Source of the DNA: Oligoflexus sp.
GTDB taxonomy: Bacteria; Bdellovibrionota_B; Oligoflexia; Oligoflexales; Oligoflexaceae
Reading direction: 5' to 3'
Length of the DNA: 64,000 nucleotides
Assembly (NCBI GenBank): GCA_014378195.1
Contig: JACMOC010000083.1
Location: 68,149 to 132,148, forward strand
Below the pieces are notes generated by a model. The model had not been told where the DNA came from, searched no databases, and was given only the letters and a program-made list of their open reading frames with translations. Below, one piece after another: positions 23,619 to 24,793 of the stretch (the first letter of the stretch is position 1; each line of letters opens with the position of its first letter). Position numbers and translations under genes: made by a program.

Positions 23619-24016
23619 GTTTGAAACTCTCGCAGGAAACATTGGGAAAAAGTGGTGAGTGCGCTTTCCCTAAAACGACCTATAAGCCGGATTTTGTCAT
23701 ATTCCTTGCGGAACGGGACTGTCATTAATCTGGGTCAGCAGTTACCTGCAGCCTCGAGCGGCCTACCCAGGAGCGAGACGGGTCATCTCTGCATAGCCTT
23801 GCAGCCATGCCCTCCTTGTTTGGCCTTGCATCGGATGGGGTTTACCGAGCCAACCTGTTGCCAAGTTGCTGGTGAGCTCTTACCTCACCGTTTCATCCTT
23901 ACCTTCCACGTTTAACCGTGGCGGGCGGTTTGCTTTCTGTTGCACTTTCCGTCGGGTTTCCCCGCCTGGTCATTAACCAGCATCCTACCCTACAATGTCC
24001 GGACTTTCCTCAATCG

Positions 24017-24141
24017 CGGGCGCACCGCAAAATGCCTTTAGACTGCGTTGGCTTCCGGCGCTCCGGTGCTCATTTACCTGTGGTAAACTCCGCTCCTCGC
24101 TTCGTCGCCGCCTTGTCTAAAGACATTTTGCGGCGCGCCCG
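24017..24141. repeat. 125-bp ERIC-like imperfect palindrome (MITE-like) inside rnpB P3
   Basis: 27-bp terminal inverted arms (25/27 match); core TGCGTTGGCT...TCATTTACCTGTGGTAAACTC...GCCGCCTT. Confidence 0.75.
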
Positions 24142-24198
24142 AGGTTGTGCCGGCGCGTGGTGGGGAGGAGGAGCTCATTTTCCTTTGGAAAATTTGCG

Positions 24199-24319
24199 CT
24201 TGGCTCCTGCCTTTGGCAGTTGCATAGCTACTTGGCTCCTGCCTTTGGCAGTTGCATAGCTACTTGGCTCCTGCCTTTGGCAGTTGCATAGCTACTTGGC
24301 TCCTGCCTTTGGCAATTGC
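24199..24319. repeat. 32-bp tandem repeat, about 3.8 copies, inside rnpB P3
   Basis: CTTGGCTCCTGCCTTTGGCAGTTGCATAGCTA at 24199, 24231 and 24263, partial at 24295. Confidence 0.95.
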
Positions 24320-24394
24320 GGGTCTAAGGGACTTTGCGATGCGCCCGAAACCGCGACAGCCCAGTCGTCTCGGATCGCGCACTCACCGGCTGTC

Positions 24395-24423
24395 GTTCTA
24401 GAGTCACAAAGAACCTTTGTCAA
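24395..24423 (-). promoter_or_regulatory. Sigma-70 promoter of rnpB
   Basis: TTGACA-N17-TAGAAC; predicted +1 near 24388/24387. Confidence 0.8.
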
Positions 24424-24463
24424 CTGAATCAAAAGATTATTTTCACAATGAAAATATCGAGAC

Positions 24464-24793
24464 TTACGACTTGAGCGTCAGCTTCAGGATTTGGTCGTAG
24501 TCATCGGGCTGGTGGCAATCGTCGAGTAACGCAATATTGCGGGTGATGGCTTGGCAGGTTATGCAGCGGAAGCGGATCATGAGGCCTTTTTTGGAATGGG
24601 TCTCGTAGCCGATGGGAACGAGAAGGCCTTTGCATGGATTGGCGCGATCGCCGGGAAAAACGTCGACGTGTTTGGAATGGAGGCAGAAAGGGCAGTGGTT
24701 CCGACAGGTTCGCTGCGAGATCGGGACGTCCCTCGCACAATGTTCGCAGACAAAGGCATCATTGATTTTTTGAAAGCGTCCTTGATCCGACAT
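24464..24793 (-). CDS. RNHCP domain protein
   Basis: F.CEHC...CRNHCPFCLHSKHVD..PGDR...C.G. Confidence 0.92.
   Translation of the reverse strand: MSDQGRFQKINDAFVCEHCARDVPISQRTCRNHCPFCLHSKHVDVFPGDRANPCKGLLVPIGYETHSKKGLMIRFRCITCQAITRNIALLDDCHQPDDYDQILKLTLKS

Follow-up and report, generated by a model that had tools for sequence, protein, structure and literature searches.

Results

Organization of the rnpB locus

The window (the whole 64,000-nt stretch of Oligoflexus sp. DNA that was analyzed) carries on its minus strand an rnpB gene for class A RNase P RNA, set between the genes for an RNHCP-domain zinc-finger protein (PF12647, 24464-24793, minus strand) and a TrmB-like tRNA methyltransferase (PF02390, 22911-23642, minus strand). 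The same order of RNHCP-protein gene, rnpB and TrmB-like gene is conserved across Oligoflexales families. The records nearest to this RNHCP protein are MAGs of Oligoflexus, Oligoflexales and Pseudobacteriovorax. We know of no function for the RNHCP protein, for which a role linked to RNA may be considered, and the P4 motif was not found near RNHCP loci from Clostridia. The genome to which the window belongs is labelled G000, and the other G and L labels denote the genomes and loci of relatives. The features of rnpB, all on the minus strand, are as follows:

24395-24423: putative promoter by direct reading, with TTGACA at 24423-24418, a 17-nt spacer and TAGAAC at 24400-24395
24377-24387: leader GGTGAGTGCGC, complementary to the trailer at 11 of 11 positions; an extended P1 or a processing stalk
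24355-24371: true 5' strands of P1 (24371-24363) and P2 (24362-24355), placed by complementarity and by identity with G005
24012-24353: the whole expanded P3, about 341 nt
24322-24346: arm 1, a first, diverged copy of the 5' arm of a palindromic element
24199-24319: tandem array with a 32-nt period, 3.8 copies at 98% matches (Tandem Repeats Finder)
24142-24207: diverged duplicate of the element's apex (UUUUCC-AAA-GGAAAA, then UGAGC) with a remnant of the 3' core
24115-24140: arm 2, the element's 5' arm, predicted by folding to form an uninterrupted helix of about 26-27 bp with arm 3
24044-24114: conserved core of the palindromic element (covariance model R1)
24018-24043: arm 3, the element's 3' arm
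23672-24011: conserved body, with the P4 5' strand GAGGAAAGTCCGG (24011-23999), the S-domain and P15-P18 (RF00010 alignment)
23723-23716, 23697-23683 and 23680-23672: 3' strands of P2, P4 and P1, respectively, within the conserved body
23654-23664: trailer, complementary to the leader

The only RF00010 match in this region spans 24040-23667 (minus strand) and scores 243 bits, well above the Rfam gathering score of 100, with model positions 1-367 matched. All of the catalytic-core motifs are present in this alignment. The first 40 model positions, which describe P1, P2 and P3, are set upon 24040-24012 with many non-pairs, and the real 5' end of the gene is missed; as the Rfam alignment begins at 24040, the insert is hidden from standard annotation. 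Direct reading locates the missing strands further upstream, where P1 is formed by GAGACGACT (24371-24363) and GGTCGTTTT (23680-23672) with nine of nine pairs, three of them G-U, and P2 by GGGCTGTC (24362-24355) and GACAGTCC (23723-23716) with eight of eight pairs, one of them G-U. The 5' strand of P1/P2 is identical at 17 of 19 positions to its homolog in the congener G005, whose rnpB aligns to RF00010 over its full length at 298 bits, and the two strands lie at an equal distance from a conserved TTGACA-N17-TAGAAC promoter. No second 7-nt complement to the P2 3' strand occurs between the 24371-24355 strand and P4. The P4 strands, GAGGAAAGUCC and ACAnAAnCCGGCUUA, are found at 24011-23999 and 23697-23683 (minus strand). 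Given a P1/P2 5' strand at 24371-24355 and a P4 that starts at 24011, P3 therefore occupies 24353-24012 (341-342 nt), and the RNA amounts to about 700 nt (24371-23672), or to 734 nt if the pairing of leader and trailer (24387-24377 with 23664-23654) is included. The sequence-only reading of this DNA had described an RNA of about twice the normal length with an intact catalytic core, a P1/P2 5' strand at about 24371 and all of the excess held in a P3 of about 340 nt, and each part of that description agrees with these measurements. The folding energy of the whole P3 is -154 kcal/mol (z = -7.7 relative to shuffled sequences), and every unit of the 32-nt array contains a CUGCC-AAA-GGCAG mini-hairpin.

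The promoter, in the form TTGACA-N17-TAGAAC/TAAAAC, is also observed upstream of rnpB in G005, G003, G010 and G011; a consensus promoter scan is silent on it because the -10 element lacks the final T. The pairing of leader and trailer may represent a processing stalk or else a P1 of unusual length. Complementary leaders and trailers are seen in congeners as well, and the leader lies at about the predicted start of transcription. An open reading frame of 113 codons with a GTG start (23918-24259, plus strand) runs antisense to the rnpB core and the insert; it is most likely spurious, though gene callers could annotate it.

Status of the gene and of its assembly

The G000 assembly comprises 4.66 Mb in 85 contigs. 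At 82% completeness it could lack a second rnpB or additional copies of the repeat; within it there is a single RF00010 match, and no second, normal rnpB accompanies the long one. Intact genes for the protein subunit (rnpA) and for RNase III (rnc) are also encoded. The score of 243 bits is the lowest among the full-length members of the genus, as might be expected of a pseudogene disabled by the insertion and now decaying, yet the loss of score is confined to the mis-aligned P1-P3 columns. In a tree of the rnpB core G000 sits on a short branch beside G005, the promoter and the gene order are conserved among relatives, and the sole rnpB copy is accompanied by an intact rnpA, all of which makes decay extremely improbable. 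We consider this the one type A RNase P RNA gene of the genome, functional in appearance and presumably active.

The physical reality of the insert deserves similar scrutiny, given that the genome was assembled from a metagenome and that tandem and inverted repeats are error-prone in assembly. Logan contigs of a glacier metagenome that is possibly the source sample (run X1) were compared with the window, and they match 23640-23863 and 24253-24440 exactly. One of them (24285-24440) runs with no mismatch from the promoter through P1 and P2 into arm 1 and the first repeat unit, while a 62-nt repeat unitig is present at 1.8-2.6 times the depth of its flanks. The interior of P3 (24018-24252) is covered by no independent contig from any run, and the duplication and the exact number of repeats thus rest on one assembly. 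An artefact in the extra 206 nt (24346-24141) or in the repeat count, with a real P3 of about 130 nt as in G010, is nonetheless very unlikely: the duplicate is diverged (83% identity with indels), which collapse or duplication during assembly would not produce, a typical read is longer than the 121-nt array, the junction from promoter to first unit and the unitig depth agree with the assembled structure, and no contig links P2 directly to P4 across a short P3. The same run holds a related second strain or species, whose contigs have a depth of about 27 and differ at 5-8 positions per 100 nt within the rnpB core (23675-24011); one of these contigs stops exactly at the P3/P4 boundary (24011). 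A metagenome scan with a 19-nt pattern for the P2/P3 junction returned 22 matches, all in unrelated coding sequence and none in rnpB. In RNA runs (X3 and others) the matches were conserved core words from other organisms.

The long P3 among relatives

P2 and P4 lie 11-31 nt apart in the 14 species genomes of Oligoflexus and in about 17 others from the order (a range that leaves out locus L035, flagged as long by the script), with three exceptions: 344 nt in G000, 137 nt in G003 and 133 nt in G010. The corresponding P3 lengths are 341, 134 and 130 nt, and homologous extensions are present in two of the 13 other Oligoflexus species (G010 and G003). With L035 set aside, the comparison with relatives limits the long P3 to these three genomes. 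For L010, L020 and L022 the script gave P3 lengths of 261-403 nt, which proved to be artefacts; the sequences themselves read as normal P3.

The three long P3s align collinearly, with 72% identity between G000 and G010 and 55-58% between G000 and G003, and are far less conserved than the ribozyme core. Between G000 and G010, 11 of the 48 pairs in the G000 P3 fold are kept through changes on both sides. The evidence for homology in G003 comes from the arms and a 15-nt motif of the core. The short-P3 genome G005 is nested within the group formed by G000, G003 and G010, both in the rnpB-core tree and in a tree of the TrmB and RNHCP proteins. A clade restricted to the long-P3 genomes is weakly rejected by the AU test with the two proteins (p = 0.025) and is not rejected with rnpB (p = 0.289). 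From these sequences the likeliest course, though not a settled one, would be a single insertion in the common ancestor of G000, G010, G003 and G005 with a later loss in G005; a single gain with no loss in G005 is possible, since the tree from rnpB itself does not reject a long-P3 clade.

A family of palindromic repeats

A BLAST search with the inner part of the insert (24145-24012) among 95 Oligoflexales genomes returned stretches of 73-88% identity at many unrelated sites, with at least eight copies in G006 and at least nine near-identical copies in G071. The copies share a common core of about 70 nt enclosed in a stem of 25-45 bp, which is fully paired and differs in sequence from copy to copy; the complementarity of the arms would be upheld either by strong selection or by a fold-back copying mechanism. 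An RNAalifold consensus of 14 copies contains 30 pairs, 20 of which show compensatory changes. The inner helices of the core were seen to covary at loci L133-L152 (G006, G071, G043, G020, G063 and others). In G071 the near-identical copies (L141-L149), at least nine of them, are flanked by CTAG at either end, as if they had recently transposed into CTAG or TA targets.

We built a covariance model (R1) from 14 dispersed copies, all outside rnpB and all from other genomes. It matches the window at 24132-24025 over its full length with 92.5 bits (E 3e-23) and the P3 of G010 with 94.8 bits; the more decayed P3 of G003 is not detected by it. By this model the family is present in 50 of the 95 Oligoflexales genomes and reaches at least 41 scored copies in a single genome, with 22 copies in G006 and 34 in G071. 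A search of 23990-24480 against Rfam at E values of up to 10 gave matches at chance level only, and the insert therefore belongs to no known RNA family. Taken together, the sequence comparisons identify the ancestral extension of about 130 nt as one copy of a mobile palindromic repeat in the P3 loop, predicted to prolong P3 coaxially.

The sole R1 match in G000 is the copy within rnpB, and the same is true of G010. A BLAST search of the insert against its own genome detected no other copy, and a full nhmmer scan added one decayed, stemless relic (C65:177608-177666). Unlike its relatives, then, G000 does not hold multiple dispersed copies, and as there is just this one relic elsewhere, its rnpB keeps the last intact copy and not a collection. 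The earlier proposal that an essential ribozyme serves as a haven for repeats consequently survives in part: the core of P3 is a full-length member of a widespread repeat family, but it has no intact companion in the genome, and the 32-nt array reads as a product of local amplification.

A duplication confined to one genome

The remaining 206 nt (24346-24141) are unique to G000, and a BLAST search with this extra part (as a 213-nt query) against the 95 Oligoflexales genomes gave nothing significant. Once three of the 32-nt periods are removed, the extra part is collinear with arm 2 and the core (24140-24043), with 83% identity over 87 positions; the similarity scores z = 8.9 relative to shuffled sequences, and 4.8 without the arm. 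This collinear match argues that the extra part is a duplicated arm followed by a diverged core, and it can be read as arm 1 (24346-24322), a diverged 5' half of the core that bears the array, and a remnant of the apex and 3' core (24207-24142). The 32-nt unit itself is similar to the core's 5' half and is not found elsewhere in G000 or in the order. On this sequence evidence, the extra part arose when the element was partly duplicated in tandem and a piece was then amplified locally to 3.8 units, and not through a further transposition. Either arm 1 or arm 2 may pair with arm 3 in predicted folds of -153.4 and -154.0 kcal/mol, respectively, a difference of 0.6 kcal/mol.

Discussion

RNase P RNA is an essential ribozyme, and insertions within it have been described before. 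RNase P RNAs are published over a range of 250-550 nt, with a mean of 374 nt for the A type (PMC7191817). The gene described here shares all core helices and conserved strands with the class A family (RF00010), is present in a single copy and is accompanied by rnpA; it differs in a P3 of 341 nt, where relatives have roughly 10-30 nt, and in a total of 700-734 nt that lies beyond the published range.

One point of comparison is the STRR repeats of cyanobacteria. The window insert resembles these in that a genomic repeat occupies a peripheral helix of an essential ribozyme and leaves the core unharmed. The cyanobacterial STRR are reportedly heptamer tandem repeats in P12, whereas the insert examined here is a palindrome of about 130 nt with a partial duplicate and a 32-nt array, lies in P3 and belongs to a member of the Bdellovibrionota; it is not built of heptanucleotides, not in P12 and not from a heterocystous cyanobacterium. 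The presence of STRR inside rnpB of heterocyst-forming cyanobacteria is attributed to Vioque (1997, NAR 25:3471), as cited in PMC2858038. In Thermodesulfatator indicus an A/U-rich expansion of about 70-87 nt in P12 is removed in vivo (PMC9945441); this too is a lineage-specific expansion of an outer helix in a type A RNA that close relatives lack, in contrast to which the present expansion is in P3, measures 341 nt and derives from a repeat. Lui et al. (2021, PMC8172020) describe diverged RNase P RNAs in CPR bacteria, with greatly extended helices. As in the CPR, large extensions of peripheral helices defeat standard covariance-model annotation in Oligoflexus; the host in our case is a non-CPR bacterium with a large genome, for which we could identify and model the inserted family and resolve a nested tandem duplication. 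There is also a likeness to the intervening sequences of 23S rRNA (e.g. in Coxiella, PMC4990558), which are extended stem-loops at the helix tips of an essential structural RNA with a patchy distribution among close relatives. Those sequences are known to be excised by RNase III, whereas here the host RNA is rnpB and has been read at the DNA level. Repeats in rnpB (the cyanobacterial STRR), expansion segments (PMC9945441) and helix extensions in the CPR (PMC8172020) are thus already published, and what is new is the site in P3, the size of 341 nt, a total length above the published range, the host lineage, the modelled repeat family and the nested duplication.

The repeat itself is reminiscent of the ERIC MITEs, which are likewise imperfect palindromes (about 105-130 nt) whose centre is conserved and which are scattered in tens of copies. 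It differs from them in its Oligoflexales hosts (as opposed to Enterobacteriaceae/Vibrionaceae) and in stems that are longer, fully paired and variable in sequence. R1 matches an E. coli ERIC copy (L153; L162:24315-24422, between ybhI and ybhJ) over its full length on one strand with 25.1 bits (E ~2e-4). This is the best R1 match in 49 kb of E. coli with filters off, the next hairpin scoring 13.5 bits, about 12 lower. A scan of a whole E. coli chromosome with R1 under strict filters was empty, a BLAST of the element core against 5,426 E. coli genomes gave no match, and an nhmmer profile run against the ERIC copy and 2,000 shuffled sequences did not report ERIC. It is reasonable to describe the element as ERIC-like in architecture, and a distant homology is possible, though unproven.

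The account which we regard as probably correct overall is that a repeat entered the P3 loop and was subsequently partly duplicated and internally amplified. A small ERIC-like palindromic mobile repeat, with a long stem and a core of about 70 nt, would have entered the terminal loop of P3, probably in the common ancestor of G000, G010, G003 and G005, where its stem could stack upon P3 and lengthen it coaxially by about 130 nt. Such an extension would be tolerated because the P3 tip is directed away from the catalytic core. The extension was later, it seems, lost from G005. In the lineage of G000, about 110 nt (the 5' arm and the core) were then duplicated in tandem, and a 32-nt piece within the older-looking copy was amplified to 3.8 units, which yields the P3 of 341 nt.

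What becomes of the insert in the mature RNA is a separate question. The insert might behave as an intervening sequence does: once the gene is transcribed, RNase III (or a different endonuclease) would cut the P3 stem and remove the distal 250-300 nt, leaving a two-piece ribozyme whose parts stay joined through P1, P2 and the foot of P3. Trimming by RNase III is plausible because the predicted helix of arm 2 and arm 3 is uninterrupted over about 26-27 bp and an rnc gene is encoded in G000. Compensatory changes between species moreover preserve the stem. A processing stalk would need this, but the same upkeep would be expected just as much of a helix that stays in the RNA. To our knowledge, no case of fragmentation of an RNase P RNA at P3 is known. 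There are precedents of a related kind, as the RNA of T. indicus loses its P12 expansion in vivo and works in fragments (PMC9945441), and RNase III cleaves transcripts at the inverted repeats of Correia MITEs (PMC10969869). A promoter scan of the minus strand identified none within the insert from which a separate 3' piece might be transcribed. We hold excision to be a tentative prospect, somewhat short of an even chance, and retention of the insert in the mature RNA to be equally possible. A more specific model is more doubtful still: the P3 stem would be an RNase III stalk, the RNase P RNAs of G000, G010 and G003 would be two-piece molecules split at P3, and formation of the stalk would hinge on competition between arms 1 and 2.

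It may also be asked whether the expanded P3 has gained a function, as a conformational switch in which arm 1 and arm 2 alternate in pairing with arm 3, or, by analogy with the protein-bound P3 of the eukaryal RNA, as a platform for protein binding. The two folds are near isoenergetic, the structure of the core is conserved across the repeat family, and the extension persists in three species. This conservation is, however, explained by the biology of the element itself, G005 lives without the extension, and the duplicated part occurs in one genome only. Furthermore, the P3s of G000 and G010 have diverged to 72% identity, while the terminal branches between the two sum to about 0.1 changes per site in the core tree. 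An acquired function is unlikely on these grounds.

These observations suggest how a catalytic RNA may grow in steps, with a mobile hairpin that enters the tip of a helix, is kept through compensatory changes, and is then duplicated and amplified. They extend repeat-expanded rnpB from the cyanobacteria to the Bdellovibrionota, and since standard annotation cuts the gene at 24040, cases of oversized rnpB are therefore under-counted. They also define a widespread, structurally conserved family of repeats in the Oligoflexales, with a weak link to ERIC. Last, the long P3 stem offers a concrete test case for an RNase P RNA split at P3, and if the model of competing arms is true, that competition would couple the maturation of the ribozyme to the folding of the RNA.
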